NCBI GenBank assembly: GCA_018396775.1
Contig: JAGTRF010000007.1
Coordinates: 22,179-86,178 of the forward strand
DNA length: 64,000 bases
Source: Candidatus Bathyarchaeota archaeon
Lineage (GTDB): Archaea > Thermoproteota > Bathyarchaeia > 40CM-2-53-6 > DTDX01
Direction of reading: 5' to 3'
How positions within the stretch are numbered: the stretch's first letter is position 1; every line of letters starts with the position of its first letter. Below the pieces are notes generated by a model. The model made no database searches. It was not told the origin of the DNA and was given only the letters and a program-made list of their open reading frames with translations. The position numbers and the translations under genes are program-made. Positions 11,918-47,698 of this stretch are shown piece after piece.

Positions 11918-13312
11918 GTGGTTTTCATGAATATAAACATAAGAAATAAGGATGCTTTAATAACTAATGGATTAACTGTAGAAACTCAAGAAGCTAGAAG
12001 ATTGATTTTAAATGGGTTGGAGGAAGCTTTAAGTTTTGCTAATCCATACTCTTTCTTGTCATCTCATGTTTCTAGAGTAGATGATAACCTTAAAATTGAT
12101 GAATGGATTTTTAATTTAAATCGTTTTAAAAGAATTTTTTTGGTTGGTGCTGGAAAAGCTTGCGAAAGCATGGCTGCTTTTATAGAATCTATTTTAAACG
12201 ATAAACTGGTTGAAGGTTGGGTTAACATTCCTAAAGGTTCTAGAAAAGGGTTTTCTTTAAATAAGGTTAAGATTCATGAGTCTTCTCACCCCATTCCAGA
12301 TGAATCCAGTTCAACTGGAGCTTTGAAAATAATTGAAATAATTGAAAAAGCTGAAGCGGAAGATTTAATTATTTGCGTTTTATCTGGTGGCGGCTCAGCT
12401 CTTATGACTGCCCCAAGAAAAAGTTTATCTCTTAAAGATAAACAAGAAGTTACGAAAAAACTTATGCTTGCAGGCGCTGATATAAAGGAGTTAAATTGCA
12501 TTAGAAAGCATTTATCAGCTATTAAAGGTGGATGGTTAGCTAAAAAAGCCTATCCAGCCACAGTTATTTCATTAATTTTATCTGATGTTGTTGGTGATGA
12601 TTTAAGCGTTATAGCATCAGGTCCCACTTCCCCTGATAATTCTACATTTAAGGAGGCTATAGAAATTCTTATGAAATATGATGTTTGGGACAATATTTCG
12701 CAATCTATTAAAAGCTTTCTTTTGGATGGAGAAAAAGGGTTAATGGAGGAAACTCCTAAAGAAGGGGATGAATGCTTTCAAAAAACTTATAATTTTATAA
12801 TTGGAAGCAATAGAGAGGTTTGCTTTAAGCTTCTTGAGTTTTATGAAGAGAAGGGGCTAAACTCTATTTTTTTAACATCTCAATTAACGGGTGAAGCTAA
12901 AGAAGCTGGGAAATTTTATGCGTCAATATTGCGCGAAATTGAATCTTCAAATAATCCTGTTAAAAAACCTTGTGCTGTAATTTTAGGCGGGGAAACTACT
13001 GTTACAGTGAAGGGTAAAGGGGTTGGTGGAAGAAATCAAGAAAGCATGGCTTCTGCTTGCATTGAAATTGATGGAATAAATGGTGCAGCGATAGCTTCTA
13101 TAGGAACTGATGGAATAGATGGTGTTACAGATGCTGCAGGAGCAATTATCGATGGTTTTACTTTGCAAAGATCTAAAAAAATAGGCTTAAATTTAAAGAA
13201 AATTCTTCAAAATAATGATTCTTATTATTTCTTTAAAGCATTAAATGATTTAATATTTACTGGTCCTACAGGAACAAATGTTAATGATATTACAATATTA
13301 GTTAAAATATAA
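11918..13312 (+). CDS. glycerate 2-kinase / hydroxypyruvate reductase-like (DUF4147 + MOFRL family)
   Basis: 464 aa. LVGAGKA, VLSGGGSALM, KHLSAIKGG, GGETTVTVKG.GVGGRNQE and GTDGIDG blocks are typical of TtuD/MOFRL glycerate 2-kinases. GTG at 11918, or ATG at 11927. Confidence 0.75.
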   Translation: MVFMNINIRNKDALITNGLTVETQEARRLILNGLEEALSFANPYSFLSSHVSRVDDNLKIDEWIFNLNRFKRIFLVGAGKACESMAAFIESILNDKLVEGWVNIPKGSRKGFSLNKVKIHESSHPIPDESSSTGALKIIEIIEKAEAEDLIICVLSGGGSALMTAPRKSLSLKDKQEVTKKLMLAGADIKELNCIRKHLSAIKGGWLAKKAYPATVISLILSDVVGDDLSVIASGPTSPDNSTFKEAIEILMKYDVWDNISQSIKSFLLDGEKGLMEETPKEGDECFQKTYNFIIGSNREVCFKLLEFYEEKGLNSIFLTSQLTGEAKEAGKFYASILREIESSNNPVKKPCAVILGGETTVTVKGKGVGGRNQESMASACIEIDGINGAAIASIGTDGIDGVTDAAGAIIDGFTLQRSKKIGLNLKKILQNNDSYYFFKALNDLIFTGPTGTNVNDITILVKI

Positions 13313-13392
13313 TATAGCGAAAGTTGCAAAAAATTTATGAGGAGAATAAAGAAAATATTTTTTAAAAAAGAGGAAGGAGTTGGAAAGCTTTA

Positions 13393-13872
13393 TTGAATGA
13401 TAATAAAGCAAGATTTAAAGTGAAAATTGGGGAATTTGAATTTGAGTTGGAAGGCGATGAAGCTTACGTTAAAAGCAAGCTTGAAGAACTTTTAAAGATT
13501 ATTCCTTTAGAAAAGCTTTTAAAAGGAGAAAGCAGAGAAACGCATGTTTCTTCAAGCTTAAAGGAGCTTGAAGGTGTAATTGAATATACGCCTGAAGGAA
13601 AATTATATTTAACTGTTCCCGCAGATTCTTTAACCTCTAAAGAAGCTTTAGGCATTATTCTTTACGCTGTTTATCCAAATAAGCTGTCTGATGAAGAGTT
13701 AAGCAATATGCTTAGCTTAAGCTGGAAACCCACTCGAAAAGAAGCTGTTAGAGCTAGAGCAAGCGAGCTTAAAAAAGAAGGAAAAATAATAGCTGATGAA
13801 GGGAAATATGGGCTTTCAGGCGTAGGTTTTCAATGGATTAAAAATGAAGTGTTAGCAAGGTTAAAGCGTTAA
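13393..13872 (+). CDS. hypothetical protein (possible C-terminal winged-helix)
   Basis: 159 aa ORF with a TTG start and no recognisable motif. The coding-like composition and its position filling the gap between two genes are the only support. Confidence 0.45.
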   Translation: MNDNKARFKVKIGEFEFELEGDEAYVKSKLEELLKIIPLEKLLKGESRETHVSSSLKELEGVIEYTPEGKLYLTVPADSLTSKEALGIILYAVYPNKLSDEELSNMLSLSWKPTRKEAVRARASELKKEGKIIADEGKYGLSGVGFQWIKNEVLARLKR

Positions 13873-13938
13873 AAATCATTTAAACAGAAAATAGTTTTAT
13901 TAATGTTTTATCTTTAAATTAATGGTGGTTGAAGTGTT

Positions 13939-15066
13939 TTGAGGGAAGCGATTAAAATTAACGAAGTTTGCTTTGATAAAGAAGAAGTTAGGCTTATAGA
14001 AGAAGTTTTGAAAAGCGGTATATTAACGAATAAAAATGGTATGGGCCCAAAAGTTTTAGAGTTTGAAAGAGCTTTCGCTGATTATATTGGGGTTAAATAT
14101 TCTGTAGCTGTATCAAGTGGAACAGCAGCTCTTCATGCAGCTTTAATGGCTTTAGATTTAAAACATAAAGATGAAGTGATTTTACCTTCATTAACTTTTC
14201 CAGCTGCTGCTGAAGCAGTTGTTTTAACAGGGGCTATCCCTATTTTCGCTGATGTAAGTGAAGAAACTTATTGTATAGATGTGGAAAGCATTGAAGATTC
14301 ATTAAGCAAAAATACTAAAGTGATTATTCCAGTTCATCTTTACGGTTTACCAGCGGACATGGATCCGATTATGAAGTTAGCTGAAGATAATGATATAGCT
14401 GTAATAGAGGATGGCGCTCAAGCTCATGGAGCTTTATATAAAGCTAGAAAAGTTGGGTCAATAGGGGATATGGGTTGCTTCAGCTTTTACGCAACAAAAA
14501 ACATGACTACTGGAGAGGGAGGAATAGTAACTTCAAATAATAAAGAATATGTTGAAGCTTTAAGAGCTATTAGAAATCATGGTGAATCTAGAGAAAATTG
14601 GAATACTAGGCTTGGACACAATTATAGAATGAGCGAAATTCAAGCTGCTTTAGGAATAGCTCAATTAAAAAAGCTTCCTGAATTTATTGAGAAAAGAAGA
14701 AATAATGCTAAAAGATTAAGTGAAGAATTAAATGATGTAAATAATTTAATTCTTCCAAAAGAACCTGAAGGTTTTACTCATGCATGGAACCTTTATACAG
14801 TAAGAGTAAAGGGAGTAAATGCGACTAGAAGAAATAAAATTGTAGCAAAGCTTAGAGAGAAGGGGATTTATGCAACTGTTTATTATGAAACGCCCACTCA
14901 TTTACTCCCCTTTTATATGGGGATAGATGATCGTAGAAAAAAAGATTTAACTAAAACAGAAAAGATTGTTCACCAAATTTTTTCTCTTCCAATTCACCCA
15001 AAAGTTTCTCCTGAAGATATAGAGTATATGAGTAAAACCTTAAAGAAAATCATGAATAAACTTTAA
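13939..15066 (+). CDS. DegT/DnrJ/EryC1/StrS-family PLP-dependent (sugar) aminotransferase
   Basis: 375 aa. VSSGTAALHAAL, DGAQAHGA and FSFYATKNMTTGEGG (PLP lysine context) are typical of the family. Confidence 0.85.
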   Translation: MREAIKINEVCFDKEEVRLIEEVLKSGILTNKNGMGPKVLEFERAFADYIGVKYSVAVSSGTAALHAALMALDLKHKDEVILPSLTFPAAAEAVVLTGAIPIFADVSEETYCIDVESIEDSLSKNTKVIIPVHLYGLPADMDPIMKLAEDNDIAVIEDGAQAHGALYKARKVGSIGDMGCFSFYATKNMTTGEGGIVTSNNKEYVEALRAIRNHGESRENWNTRLGHNYRMSEIQAALGIAQLKKLPEFIEKRRNNAKRLSEELNDVNNLILPKEPEGFTHAWNLYTVRVKGVNATRRNKIVAKLREKGIYATVYYETPTHLLPFYMGIDDRRKKDLTKTEKIVHQIFSLPIHPKVSPEDIEYMSKTLKKIMNKL

Positions 15067-39322: not shown

Positions 39323-39787
39323 TTAAAAAGGCATTTTATCCATTGGCCTTAAATTTATAAATGCTTGAGAAACGCTTCTTTTTGTAGGTTTTAACGTAAT
39401 TATGAATTTGCACCATTCATGCCCTGCAGCTTTACATTCAACTTCAAATGCGACAAAATCTTTTTGCAACATAGCTTTTAATGCACCTGCTATGTAACCT
39501 GCATCAAACCAGCAGTGAAGCTCTCCATTTTTTTCAGCTTCACTGCATGTAGCGCAATTGTAAACTTTCACTATAAGAAACTTTGAGTTTGCCCCATCAA
39601 CTTTTACCATCCCTATAGATTGTGAAGCATAAGCCTCAGATATTTTTTCTAAAGCTGCTTTAAAGCTTCTTAATGATGTGCCTGCGAAATCTTTTAAAGC
39701 TAGTTTTTCACCAGCATAATATAAAACCTCTTTTTTATTAAGCTTTAGAACAGCTTCGCTAATTGATGCTATTCGCCTTGAATACAC
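39323..39787 (-). CDS. V4R (4-vinyl reductase-type) domain protein
   Basis: 154 aa. CWFDAGYIAGALKAMLQKDFVAFEVECKAAGHEWCKFII matches the V4R C-terminal signature (C..aGyiaG......v.E.eC.a.Gd..C.F.i). GTG start with no nearby SD, so the start is uncertain. Confidence 0.75.
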   Translation of the reverse strand: MYSRRIASISEAVLKLNKKEVLYYAGEKLALKDFAGTSLRSFKAALEKISEAYASQSIGMVKVDGANSKFLIVKVYNCATCSEAEKNGELHCWFDAGYIAGALKAMLQKDFVAFEVECKAAGHEWCKFIITLKPTKRSVSQAFINLRPMDKMPF

Positions 39788-39859: not shown

Positions 39860-39937
39860 TTAAAATGGCATTCCATCTCTAAATGGCATGCCATCTCTGA
39901 ATGGCATTCCATCACGAACTTTGATTTTCTTCACCAT
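39860..39937 (-). CDS. 25-aa ORF: MVKKIKV-(RDGMPF)x3
   Basis: My translation; the ORF is below the track cut-off. The ATG at 39937 is preceded by GGAGGTGA with an 8-nt spacer; the TAA is at 39862-39860. The three 18-nt units differ only at synonymous positions (CGT/AGA, GGA/GGC, TTC/TTT). Confidence 0.5.
   Translation of the reverse strand: MVKKIKVRDGMPFRDGMPFRDGMPF
39863..39916 (-). repeat. 3 x 18-nt tandem repeat (coding RDGMPF)
   Basis: Minus strand: cgtgatggaatgccattc / agagatggcatgccattt / agagatggaatgccattt. Confidence 0.95.
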
Positions 39938-39942
39938 TACCC

Positions 39943-39964
39943 TCTTCACCTCCTATGGCTTTTT
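39943..39964 (-). repeat. copy A of a 22-nt direct repeat AAAAAG[C/T]CATAGGAGGTGAAGA
   Basis: Copy A lies upstream of the repeat-peptide ORF and supplies its SD-like GGAGGTGA. It is preceded by the TATA-like TTTATTAAAAA. Confidence 0.9.
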
Positions 39965-40259
39965 AATAAATCTCCTTGAAAACTAGGTTGTTGTTAGCTT
40001 TTCTACTTGAATTTTTCTAAAGAACAAATTTTGAATCCATTTTCACGATATTTTTCAAAAAATAATGTAAATTAATCGTTTTTCGAAAAAATAAAATTAA
40101 AATAACAAAAAAAGAATTATTTAATTTTAATAAACAACTTTTCTAAAAAAACTTAAGTTTAAAGATTTCAACTAAAAATCAAATTTTTTTATCTTTTTTA
40201 AACTGGTTACTAGAAACCTTTAAATCAACAAGAATTCTTATTCATCGTTTAAACTTTAC

Positions 40260-41123
40260 TTGAGGCTCATAAAGTTGGTTGAAAAATACGTTGAATTGAT
40301 GGAAAAGCTTAAGAAACAAGAAGAAACACTTAAGTTAAGAATGAAAAAAGTAAAGCATAAAGTTGCAGTTATAAGCGGTAAAGGAGGCGTTGGAAAAAGC
40401 GTTGTTACAGCTAACATCGCTTTAATATTCGCTAAAAAAGGATATAAAGTTGGAATTTTAGATGCTGATTTACATGGCCCCTCTATCCCAAAAATTCTTG
40501 GAGTAAGAGGTAATAAACTTGAGGCTAACTCTTCAGGGATTCTTCCCGTATTTGGTCCATTAAACGTGAAAATTGTATCAATAGATTTTCTTTTACCTAA
40601 AGATGAAACTCCTGTAATTTGGCGTGGACCATTAAAAATGAATGCTATTAGACAGTTTTTATCTGAAGTTGTTTGGGGTGAGTTAGATGTGTTATTTATG
40701 GATTTACCTCCTGGAACAGGAGATGAACCTCTAAGCGTAATAAAGCTTCTTCCCGAAATGGATGGAGTAATAGTGGTAACTATTCCATCTGAAGTTTCCC
40801 AGTTAATTGTTAAAAAATCAATAGAATTCACTAAAGAATTAAATATTCCAGTAATAGGCGTAATTGAAAATATGAGTGGATTCACATGCCCTAACTGCGG
40901 TTTTCAAATAGATTTATTTAAATCTGGTGGTGGAGAAAAAATAGCTAAAGAATTAAATGTCCCGTTTTTAGGTAAAATACCGTTAGATATTGAAGTAACT
41001 CAAAGCTCAGATGAAGGGCAACCGCTTATAATGAAAAATTTAAATTCTAAAGCTTTAAAAAGCCTTATTAATATAGCTAATAAAATAGAAGATTTTCTTA
41101 AAGAGAAGCCAAATGTTTCTTAA
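40260..41123 (+). CDS. Mrp/NBP35/ApbC-family P-loop ATPase (Fe-S cluster carrier)
   Basis: 287 aa from a TTG start; later ATG starts are possible. Deviant Walker A VISGKGGVGKS, DLPPGTGDE and CPNCG (CxxC) motifs. Confidence 0.85.
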   Translation: MRLIKLVEKYVELMEKLKKQEETLKLRMKKVKHKVAVISGKGGVGKSVVTANIALIFAKKGYKVGILDADLHGPSIPKILGVRGNKLEANSSGILPVFGPLNVKIVSIDFLLPKDETPVIWRGPLKMNAIRQFLSEVVWGELDVLFMDLPPGTGDEPLSVIKLLPEMDGVIVVTIPSEVSQLIVKKSIEFTKELNIPVIGVIENMSGFTCPNCGFQIDLFKSGGGEKIAKELNVPFLGKIPLDIEVTQSSDEGQPLIMKNLNSKALKSLINIANKIEDFLKEKPNVS

Positions 41124-42579
41124 AGATTTTACATGCTCTAATTGCGGTGAAAAATACTTAATTAGAGATAAGCATTTAAAAACTTGTTTAAAATGTGGAG
41201 AGATTCTTTTAGCAAACTATAATATTGAAGAGATTCAAGAAAAATTAAGCAGAGAAGAATTAAACAAAAGAAGGCTTGGCGTATGGAAGTATCAAGAGCT
41301 TTTACCCCCAATAAAAGAAAATAATATTGTTTCTCTTGGAGAAGGAGGAACCTTTCTTCATAAATGCGAAAAACTTGCTGAAAAACTTGGCTTAAAGCTT
41401 CTTTATGTAAAAAATGAAACAACCAATCCTACAGGTTCATTTCTAGATAGAGGCTCTACTATTGAAGTTTCTAGAGCAGTTGAATTAAATGTTAACTCTG
41501 TTTATTGCGCTACTTCTTCAGGAAACTTTGCAGCTTCAATAGCGGCTTATGCTGCAAGAGGAGGCTTAAAATGCGATATTTTTATACCTTTAGAAAGAAT
41601 TAAAGAGTTGAATTTAGGAAAGCTTTATCAAGCAATAGCTTATGGCGCAAACCTAATAATAAAAAATAACCGGATTCATGAAAGCGAGTTAAATAACCTA
41701 AGCTATTCTATCTCTCCAATTGATCCATTTTTCGCTGAAGGAGAAAAAACCACCGCATATGAGTTATGCGAGCAATTAAATTGGATTCTTCCAAATAAAA
41801 TAGTTGTTCCTATGGGTCATGGTGAACATTTATCTATGATTTGGAAAGGAATAAACGAGTTCTTCACTTTAGGGTTAATAAAATCTATTGATGTAAACAT
41901 GACTGGCGTTCAAGCAGCTGAGTTTGCGCCTATAGTTAACGAACTTCAAGGAAAAAAAGCTAAGATTCAAACTCCTAAAACTATAGCTTTAGATTTAGTT
42001 ATGGAGAATCCTCTTTACGCTAAGCTAGCTTTAAAATCTATAAAAGAATCTAAAGGTATGGCTGTTAAAGTTTCTGATGATGAAATATTTAAAGCTATGG
42101 AAATGCTTGCAAAAATGGAGGGAGTATTCGCTGAACCTTCAGCTGCTTCAACAATAGCTTGTGTAAAAAAACTTTTAGATGAAGGAAAAATAGATAGAAG
42201 CGAAACTGTTGTATGCATAATAACCGGCGCTGGTCTTAAGGATCCAGCTTCAGCAAGAAAATTCGCTGAAAAAATAAGGAAAATTAATAGAATAATTGCT
42301 GGATTAGAATCGAAACGATTTACTAAAAAGCTTGGGGAAACAAAACTTAAACTTTTAAAAATTCTTTTAAATGAATCATATGGATATGAAATTTGGAAAG
42401 CGTTAAAAAATATAGGTGTAAACTTAGATATTTCAAGCATTTACCAGCATTTAGCTGAGCTTGAAGCTATGGGTTTAATAAAAAGAACTAAAGCTGAAAG
42501 AGTTTTAGGTAAACCTGCAAGATTCTATTATTCATTAACTAGTAAAGGGGAAGAACTATTAAGAAAAGCTGAATTTTAA
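41113..42579 (+). CDS. threonine-synthase-like protein lacking the PLP lysine, with N-terminal zinc ribbon and C-terminal PadR-like winged helix
   Basis: 488 aa. CSNCG...CLKCG ribbon. ThrC blocks NETTNPTGSFLDRG (Leu111, cta at 41443-41445, where the family has SFKDRG), TSSGNFAAS, AEPSAAST and ITGAGLKDP. C-terminal YGYEIWKAL...IYQHLAELEAMGLIKR...RFYYSLTSKGEELL. 11-nt overlap with the Mrp gene. Confidence 0.8.
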   Translation: MFLKDFTCSNCGEKYLIRDKHLKTCLKCGEILLANYNIEEIQEKLSREELNKRRLGVWKYQELLPPIKENNIVSLGEGGTFLHKCEKLAEKLGLKLLYVKNETTNPTGSFLDRGSTIEVSRAVELNVNSVYCATSSGNFAASIAAYAARGGLKCDIFIPLERIKELNLGKLYQAIAYGANLIIKNNRIHESELNNLSYSISPIDPFFAEGEKTTAYELCEQLNWILPNKIVVPMGHGEHLSMIWKGINEFFTLGLIKSIDVNMTGVQAAEFAPIVNELQGKKAKIQTPKTIALDLVMENPLYAKLALKSIKESKGMAVKVSDDEIFKAMEMLAKMEGVFAEPSAASTIACVKKLLDEGKIDRSETVVCIITGAGLKDPASARKFAEKIRKINRIIAGLESKRFTKKLGETKLKLLKILLNESYGYEIWKALKNIGVNLDISSIYQHLAELEAMGLIKRTKAERVLGKPARFYYSLTSKGEELLRKAEF

Positions 42580-42582
42580 TTT

Positions 42583-44922
42583 TTAAATGCTTATTGTTGC
42601 TTGAGAAGCTCCATCTTTTCCTCTTTCAACTTTAATTATGTTCGCCGCTTCTTCTTCACCTAACCCATAATGCGTAACAAGTATTACTTGAGAAACTTTT
42701 TTAGCTGCTTCAGCCATATGACTAAGCAATTGCGGAATATTATCTGAATCAACACCATAAGTTGGCTCATCTAAAATTAATAATGTTCCCCCTCCTAAAA
42801 TTTTAAGCATAGCAAGCCTCAATGATAAAGCTATAAGCGTTTGATGCCCTCCCCCAACTCTTACAGCTGGGATATATTCATCTAAATCAATTGGTTGAAC
42901 TTCAACAAGGTAGTTTTCAGGGTTAATTTTAAATGCTTTATAAACATGTTGATCTGTTAAAGAGTTATAAATTTTTAAAGCTTCATAACTTATATCTTTA
43001 AGCTTCACTTTTCTAATATCTTCAATTCCCCTCTTTAACTCTTCAATAAATTTCTCTATCACAATTGTTTTTTCTAATCTATTTTTTAAAATCTCAAGTT
43101 TTTTTTGAAGCTCTTCCTCTTCCTCTTTAAGCTTTTTAAGCTCATTATCTAAAGCCTTCAATTTCTCATTTTTATTTTTAAATTGATATCGTAAATCTTC
43201 AAGTTCATTAAGGTTTAATGGAAGCTTTTCAGCAATTTTAACTTTTAACTCTTCATCTTCAGGTTTAAATGGAAGCATTAGCTTATTAAGAAGAAAAGCT
43301 ATGTTTGTTAAGCATTCTTGAGTTTTCCTTAATTTTTCTTCAATTTTATTAAAAAGATTTTTTACATTTTCTAACGTACTCTTCATATTTAACAGTTTAT
43401 TTTTAGCTTCATTAAATTCAGTATTCAACTTTTCAATTTTTTGTTTAACTTCTTGATGCTGTTGTTCAAGCTTGAGATACGCTTCTTCAAGCTCTTCTAA
43501 CGTTAATTCACCTAAAGCATCTTTTATTAAAGAATATACACCTGTTAAAGTTTCTAATTCATTATCAATCTTAGCAATCTCACTCTTTAGCTTATCTATA
43601 TTATTTTTTTCCTCTTCATAAAGCTTTAATACATCTGCAATTTTTTGTTTAAATTTTTTTTCGCTTTCTTCCTTCTCTAAAATTATTTTTTTTAAGGCTT
43701 CAATTGTTATTTTTTGACCGCAAGTCGGGCAATTAAATCTATTTTCTTCTAAAAGTTTTTTATGCGCTTTTAACTCTTCTTCAATCGTTAAAAGCTTGCC
43801 TTCAAGTTTATTTTTTTCCCCTTCAATTTTTTTAAACTTCTCTTCAATTGAAGTTAAAGCTTCATTAAGCTTATTAAATTCTTCACGCTTTTGATTAATT
43901 AAATCTTTAAGCATGGTTAAGCTTAACGCGTTAACAGATTTTAAAAGCTCTTTAACTTTTATTGCTTTGTTTTTATAACTTTCTTTTCTTTCTTCAATTT
44001 TTTTTAATTCTTCATCTGCTTTCTCCAGCTTCTTTTTAAGCTCATCAACTTTAACTTCATTTTCATTAATTAAACTTTTAAGCTCAATAATGTCATATAC
44101 ATTCCATTGGTTAAGTAAAGCTTTAGCAATAGCCTCCTCTTCTCTACATTTTTTTAAAAAAACATCTCTATCATTTATATTTCTTAAAAGATTAATTAAT
44201 TCAGGTGATTCTGCCCTCTTAATTTTTTCTTGCAACTCTTCAACCTCAAACCTTAAAACTTCAATTTGCTCTTCTAAATTTTTAATTTGCTCTTTAACCT
44301 TAGGAAGAAGCGCATCACTTATGTTTTTAAATTCTGTTTCAACATCTTTCTCTTCATATTTTTCTAATTCTTTTTTAACCAAGTTAAGCTGCTCTAAAAG
44401 CTCTTTAAGAGTTGTTATTCCTAAAATAGAATCCATTTCATCTTTATTAGGTTTAAGAATTTTGGTTAATTCACCTTGCCTTACATATGCTAAATTAAGA
44501 AATCTCTTCATAGTTAACCCTAAAAGCTCAGTTATTTTTCTTCTTAACTCTTCCTCCCCAGACACATGGATTTCTTTCCCATTTACTAAAAGAATTAAAC
44601 GCTCAGTTTGATAACCTTCTTTACCGCGTTTTAAGCATAGCTTCCCCCATCTTTTAACTTCTACAACCTGCCATGTTTTAGGCGAGTTAAACTTTAAGCT
44701 TAAATAAAGATTTCTAGATGCTCCTTGAAGCCTTGTAACTAAGAGCCTTTTATCTACATCTGGAATTTCCCCATATAAAGCGAAAAATATAGCTTCTAAA
44801 ATAGTTGTTTTCCCTGTAGAATTTCTTCCAGTTATAAGGTTTAAACCTGATGTAAAAGTTATTTCAGCTTTTTTATATCCTTCAAATCCTTGAATCTCCA
44901 GCTGCTCAATAATCCCCTTCAA
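42583..44922 (-). CDS. rad50: Rad50 DNA double-strand-break repair ATPase
   Basis: 779 aa. Walker A GRNSTGKTT, a long K/E-rich coiled coil with the CPTCGQ zinc hook, signature-like GGGHQTLIALSLRLA, and Walker B LLILDEPT. Confidence 0.9.
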   Translation of the reverse strand: MKGIIEQLEIQGFEGYKKAEITFTSGLNLITGRNSTGKTTILEAIFFALYGEIPDVDKRLLVTRLQGASRNLYLSLKFNSPKTWQVVEVKRWGKLCLKRGKEGYQTERLILLVNGKEIHVSGEEELRRKITELLGLTMKRFLNLAYVRQGELTKILKPNKDEMDSILGITTLKELLEQLNLVKKELEKYEEKDVETEFKNISDALLPKVKEQIKNLEEQIEVLRFEVEELQEKIKRAESPELINLLRNINDRDVFLKKCREEEAIAKALLNQWNVYDIIELKSLINENEVKVDELKKKLEKADEELKKIEERKESYKNKAIKVKELLKSVNALSLTMLKDLINQKREEFNKLNEALTSIEEKFKKIEGEKNKLEGKLLTIEEELKAHKKLLEENRFNCPTCGQKITIEALKKIILEKEESEKKFKQKIADVLKLYEEEKNNIDKLKSEIAKIDNELETLTGVYSLIKDALGELTLEELEEAYLKLEQQHQEVKQKIEKLNTEFNEAKNKLLNMKSTLENVKNLFNKIEEKLRKTQECLTNIAFLLNKLMLPFKPEDEELKVKIAEKLPLNLNELEDLRYQFKNKNEKLKALDNELKKLKEEEEELQKKLEILKNRLEKTIVIEKFIEELKRGIEDIRKVKLKDISYEALKIYNSLTDQHVYKAFKINPENYLVEVQPIDLDEYIPAVRVGGGHQTLIALSLRLAMLKILGGGTLLILDEPTYGVDSDNIPQLLSHMAEAAKKVSQVILVTHYGLGEEEAANIIKVERGKDGASQATISI

Positions 44923-46172
44923 TCTTTAACCCCTAAGATTTCAAGCCATTTTTTAACAAATCTTCTTCGATCTAAATCTTTTAAAAGCCCAGATCTTTGG
45001 CTTCCAGCTTCCTCTAAACGTGCATCAACTTCTTCAGTAAGGTTTAAAGCTTCATTTAAAGCTTCCAACCCTAAAGGCTCAAATAAACCTTTAAGAAACT
45101 CTTCTCGAGTTGTTGTAGAGGATATTTGAAGCGGTTTAGTTAATTCTTCAACTTGATTTTCAAGCTCTAAATGAATAATTGATTCATGTTTAGAAAGTTT
45201 TTCTTTAAATTTGGCTTCCAACTCATATTTATCTTCGTTTACAATACCTTTTAACATAATTCTTAATATTCCTTTCTTACGCGCTTTCTCCAGCTTTTTT
45301 ACATAATTTTTAAATTCTATTAAAGCTTGATTTAAAAACCAATCTAAATTTTTTACAGCTTTCCCCCCGTCTATCTTAACAGTTTCCACAAAATAGGTTG
45401 GTTCAATAGCTTTAAATTTAAGATTCACTATATTATTAGTTAATTCTAAAATATATATACCATGAGGATCCTTTTCAGCTAAATCATAATATTCCGTGCT
45501 TCCAGGCGTTAAAAAAGTTAATTCCTCAAACTCTTCATCTTTTTTAGCATGATTATGCCCAGAAATAATAATGCTTGCCTCTAGATTTTTTAATTCTTTA
45601 ATTGAGATTTTTTGATGCTCTGGTACTCCAAACGGTAAATCATGATGCCCATCAATAAACGTGTGAAGAAGAAGAATTTTACAAGAAGCTTTTGAAGCTT
45701 TTAAAGCTTTTTTAATATTTTCTTGCACGCTTTTAAACTTGTATGCCACATAAGGTGTATAACCCATTCCTACTAAAGCGAAATTTGTTTCTTCATAAAA
45801 TTCAATTTTGCCTTCTAAAGTTTCTTCTCCAATAAGCTTAAAGTACTTAGCTAACGGATGCTCAATATAATTTAAAGCGTTATTTACAATTGTGCCATCA
45901 TGATTCCCACGTAAAACAAATATTTTTATTTCTTTGCTTAAATTATCTATAAGCCTTTGAAATTCGTTTTTAACAAATATAGAATCGCTGGGGGTCATGC
46001 TTTCTCTTTCAAAAACATCGCCACAATGAATTACATAGTCAACTTTCTCTTGAATAAACATGTTTATTGCTTGGGTAAAAGCATTTTTGAAAGCTTCTCT
46101 TCTTAACTCACCTATAGCCTTAGGAACGCTTCTTCCAATATGTGTATCACTGAAAACGCCTATTTTCACCAT
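44919..46172 (-). CDS. mre11: Mre11 nuclease
   Basis: 417 aa. Calcineurin-like phosphoesterase motifs SDTHIG, GDVFE, GNHD and SGHNH. 4-nt overlap with rad50. Confidence 0.9.
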   Translation of the reverse strand: MVKIGVFSDTHIGRSVPKAIGELRREAFKNAFTQAINMFIQEKVDYVIHCGDVFERESMTPSDSIFVKNEFQRLIDNLSKEIKIFVLRGNHDGTIVNNALNYIEHPLAKYFKLIGEETLEGKIEFYEETNFALVGMGYTPYVAYKFKSVQENIKKALKASKASCKILLLHTFIDGHHDLPFGVPEHQKISIKELKNLEASIIISGHNHAKKDEEFEELTFLTPGSTEYYDLAEKDPHGIYILELTNNIVNLKFKAIEPTYFVETVKIDGGKAVKNLDWFLNQALIEFKNYVKKLEKARKKGILRIMLKGIVNEDKYELEAKFKEKLSKHESIIHLELENQVEELTKPLQISSTTTREEFLKGLFEPLGLEALNEALNLTEEVDARLEEAGSQRSGLLKDLDRRRFVKKWLEILGVKD

Positions 46173-47698
46173 CTCTCTCTTTCCCTCTTCTTAATCTCGT
46201 TAATAATTTTATTTTGAATTTCTAAAAGGTTTGGGGTTGCACCAAAATGTATAGTTTTTCTTTTTTGAGTTTTTATAACAGCTGGAATTGGAACATATGG
46301 TCCAACTAATACGGCTTCACCTTGATTTAAAGCAGGTAAATCTTCCACCAATCTGTGGCTAAAGCTTTCGCTTGCAGATTCTATAATGCTTTGATCTTGA
46401 TTATTTGTTATTCTTAAAACAGCGTAATTCCCTACATTAGCCATAATTTCAGGGCTTATGCTTCTTGGACGCTGGCTTATTAAACAAAGATATAAACCAA
46501 ATTTAGCGCCCTCCCTTATAGCTGTTGATAAAGCTTTTACAGCGTAACGACTTGACTCTTTAGAAGCAACTCTATGAGCTTCTTCTATAAAAAGGAATGT
46601 TGGAGGCGCTTTTAAGGGCTCTTTCCCAAAATATTTAACTTGATTGTTAAAAATTAAATCAACAATTATTGCTGTATAAGCATCTTGAACTTTAGATCTT
46701 AACCCTCTTAAACATATTATGCTTAATGTTTTTGGTTGAAGAAGCTCTTGAAGACTTAAGCCTTCAGCTGGGAGCTTAACATCTCTTTCAGCATCCTTTA
46801 TTCTAGCATATAAAGATTTAAATCTTCTTCTATCCTCAGCTTCACTATCTTCTCTTTCGCTTTTTTCTTTCACTTTATCCATTAAATCACCAAACCCGAA
46901 AGGTTTACCTGATTCTTTAAGCTCCTCAAGAATTTCTCTTAAAGCCGCTTCTTGCAACTCTCCTATTCTACCAAGCATATCCATGAAAGCTTCATTTTCA
47001 ACTTGATTTAAGCTTATTTTAAGTTCTTTAACTTCCGCTGTAACCCCTGGGACTTCAGGTGCTCCAGGTGGATAATAAAGAGTTACATTAAAGTCATTAT
47101 GTTTTTGATTTGTTTCCGCAAATCTGTCCATCATTACATAATCTCCATGCACATCAATAACTATGGTTGGAAAATAAGTTTTTGTTAAAATCTCCTCAAT
47201 TAAAACCCCTGCTAAATACGATTTTCCCCCTCTAGTTTGAGCGAAAACTCCTAGATGAAAACTTAAATCCTGAAGGAAAACAGGAACTTTAACGCTTGAT
47301 CTATGAAGAAGAGTTCCAATAAAAATTGGAATTCTTTTTTCATCACATGAATAAAACTTTTGAAGCTCATCATCTGAAGCTTTATAAACAATTGTATTTG
47401 GTTTTGGAGCTATTTTAGGTTTTGATATTTTTCCATCCTCATCCAAATAACCTAAAACTTCAACTGTAGCAATTTCATAGCTGTAAACATCGCTTATAAA
47501 TGCTTCTCCAGCAGGTTTTTCTAAAGCTAAAGGATTTTTAGAACCAACATTTACAACTTCAGCTAAAACCTTTTTTCTTTCACCCACTTCAACTACAACA
47601 TATTCATGAAGGGGCATCGTTAAACCCTTCTCAACTTTAAAACTGAATTGAAGAGGTGTAGCTCCGTCAAGAACAAAACCCACGTTTTCTCTAGTCAT
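46166..47698 (-). CDS. herA: HerA hexameric DNA helicase/translocase
   Basis: 510 aa. HAS-barrel-like N-terminus, Walker A FAQTRGGKSY, Walker B FLFIEEAH. Operon context with nurA, mre11 and rad50. Confidence 0.85.
   Translation of the reverse strand: MTRENVGFVLDGATPLQFSFKVEKGLTMPLHEYVVVEVGERKKVLAEVVNVGSKNPLALEKPAGEAFISDVYSYEIATVEVLGYLDEDGKISKPKIAPKPNTIVYKASDDELQKFYSCDEKRIPIFIGTLLHRSSVKVPVFLQDLSFHLGVFAQTRGGKSYLAGVLIEEILTKTYFPTIVIDVHGDYVMMDRFAETNQKHNDFNVTLYYPPGAPEVPGVTAEVKELKISLNQVENEAFMDMLGRIGELQEAALREILEELKESGKPFGFGDLMDKVKEKSEREDSEAEDRRRFKSLYARIKDAERDVKLPAEGLSLQELLQPKTLSIICLRGLRSKVQDAYTAIIVDLIFNNQVKYFGKEPLKAPPTFLFIEEAHRVASKESSRYAVKALSTAIREGAKFGLYLCLISQRPRSISPEIMANVGNYAVLRITNNQDQSIIESASESFSHRLVEDLPALNQGEAVLVGPYVPIPAVIKTQKRKTIHFGATPNLLEIQNKIINEIKKRERERW

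Follow-up and report, generated by a model that had tools for sequence, protein, structure and literature searches.

A putative vitamin B6-responsive regulator family of Archaea combining a lysine-less threonine synthase fold with a PadR-type winged helix

What might a protein with the fold of threonine synthase (ThrC) be doing when the Schiff-base lysine of the enzyme is replaced by leucine and a DNA-binding domain follows at the C-terminus? The question is raised by an open reading frame (ORF) at positions 41113–42579 of a 64,000-nucleotide stretch of DNA from Candidatus Bathyarchaeota archaeon (GenBank assembly GCA_018396775.1, contig JAGTRF010000007.1, positions 22,179 to 86,178 of the forward strand; 32% G+C), referred to here as the window. 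An earlier reading of the sequence by itself (the sequence-only reading) had proposed that the encoded protein is a non-catalytic ThrC-fold sensor fused to a DNA-binding output, and this is supported here by loss of the lysine throughout the family, by selection on both domains and by a conserved operator. Judged from its sequence, the window protein is very probably a non-catalytic DNA-binding regulator. We furthermore consider it likely that this ThrC-derived, PadR-fused protein is an archaeal regulator, itself likely a repressor, that responds to vitamin B6 or pyridoxal phosphate (PLP) and controls the pdxS-pdxT genes together with an energy-coupling factor (ECF) uptake gene.

Domain Structure and the Lost Lysine

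The ORF is composed of the following features, all on the plus strand (wHTH, winged helix-turn-helix; pLDDT, predicted local distance difference test; AF2, AlphaFold2):

41113–42579, +: intact, whole ORF of 488 residues plus stop, comprising Zn ribbon, Lys-less ThrC-like domain, linker helix and PadR wHTH
41128–41205, +: N-terminal Zn ribbon (C8, C11, C25, C28), common to PRK08197-type ThrC
41329–42228, +: fold-type II PLP-enzyme (PALP/ThrC) domain, residues 73–372 (PF00291)
41443–41445, +: codon cta, Leu111 at the Schiff-base lysine position (SFKDRG to SFLDRG)
41815–41829, +: Gly-rich PLP-phosphate loop G235-H-G237-E-H, both glycines retained
42244–42327, +: linker helix, residues 378–405, low-confidence model (pLDDT <50 at 374–391 and 397–405)
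42337–42570, +: PadR-type wHTH, residues 409–486 (PF03551, AF2 topology)
42430–42468, +: predicted recognition helix (SSIYQHLAELEAM), with a D-I-S signature before it

The PALP domain was matched at residues 73–372 with E = 2e-55, and the solved ThrC structures 2zsj, 6cgq and 2d1f aligned in HMMER from residue 57 to ≈387 with 35–38% identity. Together with the presence of the NPTGSF-DRG, SSGN, AEPSAAS and TGAGLKDP motifs, this bears out the homology to short-type ThrC that had been seen by eye. In each of the three alignments Leu111 of SFLDRG faces the lysine of SFKDRG, as the sequence-only reading had it. The four cysteines of the Zn ribbon were invariant across 104 family members, and the alignment to NCBIfam PRK08197 begins already at residue 2. 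An AF2 model built from 104 sequences (mean pLDDT 86) had the ThrC fold, with β-strands at residues 3–8 and 31–36 in the Zn ribbon region; its best Foldseek matches in the PDB were all ThrC (2zsj, 6cgq, 2d1f and 1uin), with target-normalised TM-scores of ≈0.82–0.85.

The PadR domain was found at residues 415–484 (E = 2.4e-12; 47.1 bits vs a cut-off of 27), and the PadR chains 6abt and 6abq (E ≈ 1e-6), 4ejo and 4esf match the same C-terminus. Residues 409–486 were modelled as helix-helix-helix-wing-helix (helices 409–417, 424–433 and 440–452, strands 456–462 and 470–475, helix 477–486), with pLDDT values of 75–92 by 10-residue block. The C-terminal extension postulated earlier is thus real and models as a wHTH, its length being ≈100 residues, linker helix included, rather than 85. 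The combination of ThrC and wHTH was absent among the solved structures matched by PDB sequence and Foldseek searches.

It could be argued that the protein is a working threonine synthase with an added DNA-binding domain, bifunctional like RbkR or BirA. The window protein passed the cut-off of the thrC model TIGR00260 (205 vs 167 bits), family members are named threonine synthase in NCBI, JGI and UniRef, and two rare PadR-fused relatives (P0192 and P0204) keep the lysine and could be bifunctional. Against this, the protein missed the cut-offs of both PRK08197 (288.7 vs 303 bits) and PRK05638 (NF004170; 294.3 vs 421 bits), the lysine has given way to a hydrophobic residue in nearly all of the main clade, and at least one fusion-bearing genome has a separate canonical ThrC (see below). 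It is established that fold-type II enzymes need this lysine both to form the internal aldimine and as the catalytic base. Since the defining lysine is missing and the two cut-offs are not reached, we conclude that the window protein is most probably not a threonine synthase, and a bifunctional enzyme is extremely improbable. One argument previously made for a pseudoenzyme, the GHGEH sequence of the phosphate loop, fails nonetheless, because the closest ThrC relatives that do have the lysine vary just as much in this loop, and its two glycines are kept in both groups.

Family-Wide Loss of the Lysine

The 120 closest homologues (45–91% identity to the window protein) come from Bathyarchaeia, Nitrososphaerales, Odin- and Thorarchaeota, and all except one truncated sequence contain both PALP and PadR. 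Among these and the query, position 111 is occupied by Leu (59), Ile (51), Met (4), Val (4), Thr (2) or Ser (1) and never by Lys, while the surrounding NPTGSF-DRG motif is almost invariant; the substitution therefore cannot be a sequencing error. A wider set of representatives, the 150 most similar from 1.84 billion clusters at 50% identity, divided largely according to the presence of the PadR region. All 61 sequences without it have lysine, and 68 with it, including the query, have neither Lys nor Arg. Eight PadR-fused exceptions carry Arg (six) or Lys (P0192 and P0204).

In a neighbour-joining tree calculated from the PLP domain alone, all 75 PadR-fused sequences lie on one side of a single split, joined by no others than two truncated Lys-less fragments, which indicates that the fusion of the ThrC-like and PadR domains probably arose once. 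Within this clan the fusions with Lys, Arg or Ser form a sub-clan of their own, and the main branch never carries lysine. The ThrC-PadR architecture thus defines a widespread archaeal family rather than an isolated gene. Compared to an 83%-identical orthologue (locus L084), the ThrC-like part has a ratio of nonsynonymous to synonymous substitution rates (dN/dS) of 0.19, and the linker with the PadR domain one of 0.16, showing that both domains are maintained by purifying selection. One Heimdallarchaeota metagenome-assembled genome (MAG) encodes both a PadR fusion (L043) and a separate, canonical 421-residue ThrC with the lysine-containing motif NPTSSFKDR (L068), so the fusion is not the threonine synthase of that organism.

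To locate the differences from the enzyme, conserved positions were compared between the 61 canonical ThrC and the 68 PadR-fused sequences. Nearly all residues conserved in ThrC are kept in the fusions, including N138, G235, G237, E341, T371 and G372. The positions that changed are K111 (100% Lys in canonical ThrC, hydrophobic in the fusions), S135 (93% Ser, variable in the fusions) and position 207 (Arg or Gln, replaced by Phe, Leu, Tyr or Ile). We take the retained positions to be those that line the cofactor, and the lost ones to include the catalytic base and contacts to the carboxylate and phosphate of the substrate. By these sequence comparisons, the Lys-less, PadR-fused proteins probably constitute a single-origin archaeal family derived from ThrC.

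The same set of representatives contained ten Lys-containing proteins of 610–633 residues with a different C-terminal extension. In the three that were scanned (P0179, P0201 and P0242), the ThrC homologue is fused to the LeuA allosteric/dimerisation domain PF08502, which suggests feedback-regulated threonine-synthase-like enzymes.

Linkage to Vitamin B6 Genes

Gene neighbourhoods were scanned in one genome per GTDB species, giving 80 loci with 47 PadR-type and 37 canonical ThrC genes. The PadR-type loci came from Bathyarchaeia, Nitrososphaerota including Nitrosopumilales, Caldarchaeales, Loki-, Thor-, Hermod-, Heimdall- and Odinarchaeota, and further from Methanomethylicota, Brockarchaeota, Culexarchaeia and Thermoplasmata. 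The gene of P0012, a relative with 55–56% identity and the same GHGEH loop, is divergent from the PLP synthase genes pdxS-pdxT. The same pair directly adjoins the regulator gene, in divergent orientation, in L001 and five species loci (L004, L005, L021, L041 and L045), which together span three distant lineages (Bathyarchaeia, Thermoplasmata and Nitrososphaerota). In 27 loci the divergent neighbour is instead a gene for an ECF S component of family PF07155. Counting either kind of gene within 1.5 kb, 32 of the 47 PadR-type loci and none of the 37 canonical ThrC loci are linked (Fisher p = 8.9e-12); five of the 15 PadR-type loci without such a neighbour have no upstream sequence. The K- and R-type sub-clan also has members adjoining PF07155 genes (L048 and L208, from Odin- and Bathyarchaeota), and no B6 neighbours were found for the R-type gene of Thermococcus chitonophagus.

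Both B6-type S components, PdxU and PdxU2/HmpT, belong to PF07155 (PMC9997740). The only solved structure that matched the archaeal S components was 4HZU chain S (E = 5e-18 to 5e-13), which is HmpT/PdxU2 and carries pyridoxamine (PMC4860826). Of the residues that form the HmpT pocket, Y120, N140 and Q143 are kept in the archaeal S component and two more are changed conservatively (E41D and W76F). From this partial conservation, the substrate is plausibly a form of B6.

The sequence-only reading had listed PLP, O-phosphohomoserine and threonine as candidate ligands. The linkage to pdxST and to a PdxU2/HmpT-like transporter narrows this list to PLP or other B6 vitamers and disfavours O-phosphohomoserine and threonine. 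A ThrC-derived transcription factor might still respond to another ligand, either a metabolite of the threonine pathway (O-phosphohomoserine, threonine or homoserine) or a pyrimidine or other vitamin precursor brought in through the S component. Its sensor domain does descend from ThrC and retains most of the pocket; HmpT was first predicted to carry hydroxymethylpyrimidine (PMC4860826); and PF07155 is multi-specific, with NCBIfam giving no specificity for the archaeal S components. Set against these points, the positions presumed to contact the substrate are degraded (S135 variable, R/Q207 hydrophobic) while the cofactor side is kept, and the pdxS-pdxT adjacency recurs in three distant lineages. 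No annotated threonine-pathway gene occurred among the most recurrent neighbour clusters, although no search was aimed at such genes. A ligand other than B6 therefore appears unlikely, and we hold it probable that the family responds to B6 and has pdxST and the S-component gene as its targets.

Two further neighbours were seen beside the S-component gene. In Nitrososphaerota it is adjoined by an AIR-synthase-related (PurM/ThiL-like) gene (L033:8062–9549, −; L019:5682–6731, +; and seven further loci), and in Asgard loci the same position is taken by a gene for a 471-residue protein without a Pfam match (L017:1555–2970, −). Both are candidates for unrecognised B6 salvage enzymes, which would then come under the same operator.

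A Conserved Operator

Most genes of the family are preceded, 3–25 nt upstream of the start codon, by a bipartite element, ATATATAAG-N6-CCTATATATAGG, in genomes that range from ≈30% to 60% G+C. In 33 loci a weight matrix of this element picked out a single site each, with scores of 25–45 bits, and in every case the site precedes the regulator gene. A weaker copy (17.8 bits) was present in L019, 12 nt before an S-component gene located 2.4 kb away from the regulator. No canonical operator was seen for the K-type member L208. The second box is a perfect palindrome and would therefore suit a dimeric wHTH protein.

The element was also used by itself to scan metagenome contigs with the pattern ATATAA-N7-CCTATATATAGG, which gave 120 matches. 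In more than half of them (67) the motif immediately precedes a ThrC-PadR gene and has the expected orientation; on the divergent side there is an S-component gene in 55 of these cases and pdxS in two. Eight others precede an S-component gene, no regulator gene having been found on the downstream side (one of the eight is cut by the contig end, and in one the regulator is rearranged), and one precedes pdxS at a contig end. The remaining 44 had no recognisable link to the family. Their flanks are mutually unrelated (phage-like, NrdR, Thi4, stand-alone PadR), and they were treated as chance or unrelated matches.

On an unrelated contig, one exact match to the pattern precedes a stand-alone PadR-family gene by 8 nt (L113:1361–1965), and may be due to chance or to a related DNA specificity within the PadR family. 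In the Heimdallarchaeota locus, a weaker operator-like palindrome, CCCTAAATATAGGG, was found at L043:14121–14153, ≈125 nt upstream of two ECF-type ABC ATPase genes (12361–13997, −), a pair that is located ≈2.6 kb past the end of the regulator gene. The energising module may thus be part of the regulon there.

A variant of the box, CCCATATATGG(G), occurs in one Bathyarchaeial clade and in one further lineage. The five proteins associated with it have D-I-S before the recognition helix, where the remaining proteins show K/R-I-P or T-T-A. Because D-I-S is present in the window protein as well, its operator is predicted to be ATATATGA-N7-CCCATATATGGG.

The motif is separated from the start of the regulator by a median of 10 nt, and from the start of the divergent gene by a median of 31 nt, which places the centre of the TATA-like first box ≈33 nt from both start codons, with the palindrome 6 nt from the box. 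The archaeal TATA box is found ≈26 nt upstream of the transcription start, and this spacing accordingly points to a shared, near-leaderless bidirectional promoter. The palindrome would then be situated between the TATA box and the start of the regulator transcript, and on the side of the transcription factor B recognition element (BRE) of the divergent promoter, a usual position for archaeal repressors. We regard the conserved palindrome as a putative PadR operator of the family; it is present neither near the window gene nor elsewhere in the window.

Proposed Mechanism

We propose that PLP or a different B6 vitamer is held non-covalently in the pocket of the ThrC-like domain. Because the Schiff-base lysine is gone, binding of the ligand would be reversible. 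Lysine-to-alanine or lysine-to-threonine mutants of other fold-type II enzymes keep PLP, often as the external aldimine with an amino acid. The ligand would shift the relative position of the two wHTH domains in a dimer, acting through the linker helix, and the liganded form would occupy the palindromic operator CCTATATATAGG (CCCATATATGGG in the subclade of the window protein). Once bound, the regulator would shut down the synthesis and uptake of B6 and, in most lineages, also its own expression. The geometry of the operator suggests that both divergent genes are repressed when B6 is plentiful; the opposite sign, activation at low B6, is possible. Taken as a whole, the evidence tips towards this family, which spans TACK, Asgard and Thermoplasmata archaea, being the missing archaeal B6 regulator. 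It would then be the first family of transcription factors to be based on the fold of a fold-type II PLP enzyme, and would use a single operator within a shared bidirectional promoter to repress both pdxST and a PdxU2-like ECF importer.

Several observations weigh against this proposal. Adjacency to pdxST is rare, at 6 of 47 species loci with L001 included. PF07155 includes riboflavin transporters too, and two residues of the HmpT pocket differ in the archaeal S component (H84K and Q87E). The unlinked matches make up 44 of the 120 in the motif-only scan, the covariation of the operator variant with D-I-S involves few and related lineages, and the AT-rich operator coincides in part with core promoter elements, whose function could account for some of its conservation. 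The identity of the ligand, the direction of regulation and the binding to DNA are all things that we infer.

The Copy in the Window

The main weakness lies in applying the family conclusion to the window copy itself, where the B6 genes and the operator are absent. Searches of the window with tblastn and blastp detected no pdxS, pdxT, ECF S-component gene or second PALP gene. The consensus operator with two mismatches and the weight matrix gave chance-level results in the window (best 7 bits), and the Bathyarchaeial subclade variant of the operator had no matches there. In L084, the 83%-identical relative, the surroundings are likewise free of B6 genes. The genes and sequences immediately upstream are as follows:

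40260–41123, +: gene for a P-loop ATPase of the Mrp/NUBPL type (PF10609, E = 2e-96), its end sharing 11 nt with the beginning of ThrC-PadR
39938–40259, no strand assigned: AT-rich intergenic region, presumed promoter of the Mrp-ThrC-PadR operon, without the family operator

The sequence-only reading had pointed to a DNA target at 39.9–40.26 kb, an expectation that did not hold, as the family operator is missing there and in the rest of the window. Footprinting of this region against L084 and L086 revealed RBS-like (ribosome-binding site) and TATA-like blocks only, and no palindrome. A pseudo-palindrome in the 3′ end of the Mrp gene (41061–41076) was rejected as an operator because it is not conserved in L084. 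A bacterial promoter and terminator scan was uninformative for an archaeon.

The overlapping Mrp-type ATPase and ThrC-PadR genes probably form an operon, judging from their arrangement, which is kept in L084. Synteny with L084 extends on one side to genes for a topoisomerase, deoxyhypusine synthase, an isopropylmalate/isocitrate dehydrogenase and a V4R protein, and downstream to the convergent Rad50-Mre11-HerA-NurA genes. In the window, the Rad50-Mre11-HerA cluster (42583–47698, −, and beyond) is convergent with the ThrC-PadR gene and represents an ordinary archaeal DNA-repair operon.

Since no operator was detected in the window, this sublineage has evidently given up controlling its own gene by way of the family operator. 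Should the function proposed for the family apply here too, the B6 targets would have to lie elsewhere in the genome, because the window contains neither B6 genes nor the operator, and the window copy would still act on them there. The recognition helix, wing and sensor pocket are conserved in the window copy and under purifying selection. A different explanation is that the family regulates B6 and this sublineage has been rewired, for example to the small-peptide/V4R operon or to Fe-S-related genes. This would fit the absence of the canonical upstream operator throughout the group with 64–91% identity, the conservation of the Mrp operon arrangement in L084, and the divergent neighbour in L086 (65% identity), which is a DGMPF-repeat peptide gene and not pdxS or an S-component gene. 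Against it stand the recognition helix and wing, near-identical to those of pdxST-linked relatives (DISS[IV]YQHL...GKP.R.YYSLT), the GHGEH loop common to the window protein and the pdxST-linked P0012, the purifying selection on both domains, and the lack of any alternative conserved palindrome in the three-way intergenic alignment. We therefore regard rewiring as decidedly unlikely, and retain B6 regulation at a distance as the reading for the window copy.

A small ORF at 39860–39937 (−), preceded by the ribosome-binding site GGAGGTG, encodes MVKKIKVRDGMPFRDGMPFRDGMPF. Immediately after it, on the same strand, comes a V4R-domain gene (39323–39787) whose product also ends in ...DKMPF. The peptide is kept in L084 with mostly third-position changes, and in a variant form in L086; it may be a repeat peptide or a leader peptide.

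Annotation and Significance

All source names encountered for the family are "threonine synthase" except for one NCBI record (P0216, pyridoxal-phosphate dependent enzyme). The PRK05638 "threonine synthase" equivalog was modelled on the Arg-type, wHTH-bearing sub-clan, and the threonine synthase label of NF004170 is probably a systematic misannotation. Such naming of the family, carried through NCBI, JGI and UniRef, can corrupt reconstructions of threonine biosynthesis in uncultured archaea. In the open literature, subscription-only papers being outside the search, we found no description of a ThrC-PadR regulator and no account of how vitamin B6 supply is regulated in Archaea. Nor did we find there a characterised fold-type II analogue of MocR, in agreement with what the sequence-only reading had supposed. 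We know of no PLP riboswitch.

The family offers a testable candidate for archaeal B6 regulation, for which both an operator and likely targets can be named. It occurs in lineages of ecological dominance (Bathyarchaeia and the ammonia-oxidising Nitrososphaerota) and in the Asgard relatives of eukaryotes. If the proposal is true, the use of a PLP-enzyme fold as a sensor would be extended from fold-type I, as in MocR, to fold-type II; the family would represent a natural sensor made reversible by loss of its covalent anchor; and a widespread archaeal ECF S component would gain B6 as its likely substrate.

Comparison with Known Systems

The window protein has the same fold and Zn ribbon as ThrC (TIGR00260, PRK08197; 2zsj, 6cgq, 2d1f and 1uim), with 35–38% identity over ≈340 residues, and most of the conserved cofactor-site motifs. 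It differs from ThrC in the absence of the Schiff-base lysine, the degraded substrate-side residues and the extra linker and PadR wHTH, and its family differs in the linkage to pdxST or a B6-type transporter gene and in the operator. A closer match in architecture is NF004170 (PRK05638), a 442-position model that spans both the ThrC-like and the wHTH parts and belongs to the same clan. Its members nevertheless form a separate sub-clan, in which the wHTH is shorter and the lysine is replaced by Arg (in rare cases the residue is Lys or Ser); P0216 from Thermococcus chitonophagus (WP_068578498.1), for instance, scores 800 bits against PRK05638 and has Arg at this position.

The wHTH is above the Pfam threshold for the PadR family (PF03551), and the family operator is palindromic. 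Typical PadR proteins are ≈100–180 residues long and have a C-terminal dimerisation helix or domain, whereas in the window protein a 400-residue enzyme-like sensor precedes the wHTH.

Fusion of a cofactor enzyme domain to a DNA-binding domain is also the design of the archaeal RbkR (riboflavin kinase + wHTH; PMC5397151), which controls both synthesis and transporter genes from operators near archaeal promoter elements. The two systems differ in the vitamin, the enzyme fold and the DNA-binding family, and RbkR is still an active kinase, while the window protein is without its catalytic residue. Another archaeal vitamin regulator, ThiR, consists of a ThiN-like domain and a DNA-binding domain.

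The functionally nearest system, by analogy, is bacterial PdxR. The MocR proteins, PdxR and GabR among them, likewise use a PLP-enzyme fold as the sensor of a wHTH transcription factor. PdxR regulons include pdxST, pdxK and pdxU, and MocR/PdxR is reported to be absent from Archaea (PMC5320631). The pdxR gene is transcribed divergently from pdxST, and its product also governs the pdxU uptake genes (PMC5320631), a gene logic that the archaeal family appears to match. MocR proteins have a fold-type I aminotransferase-like domain with an N-terminal GntR-type wHTH and keep the PLP lysine (PMC5320631), whereas the window protein combines a fold-type II sensor without this lysine with a PadR wHTH at the C-terminus.

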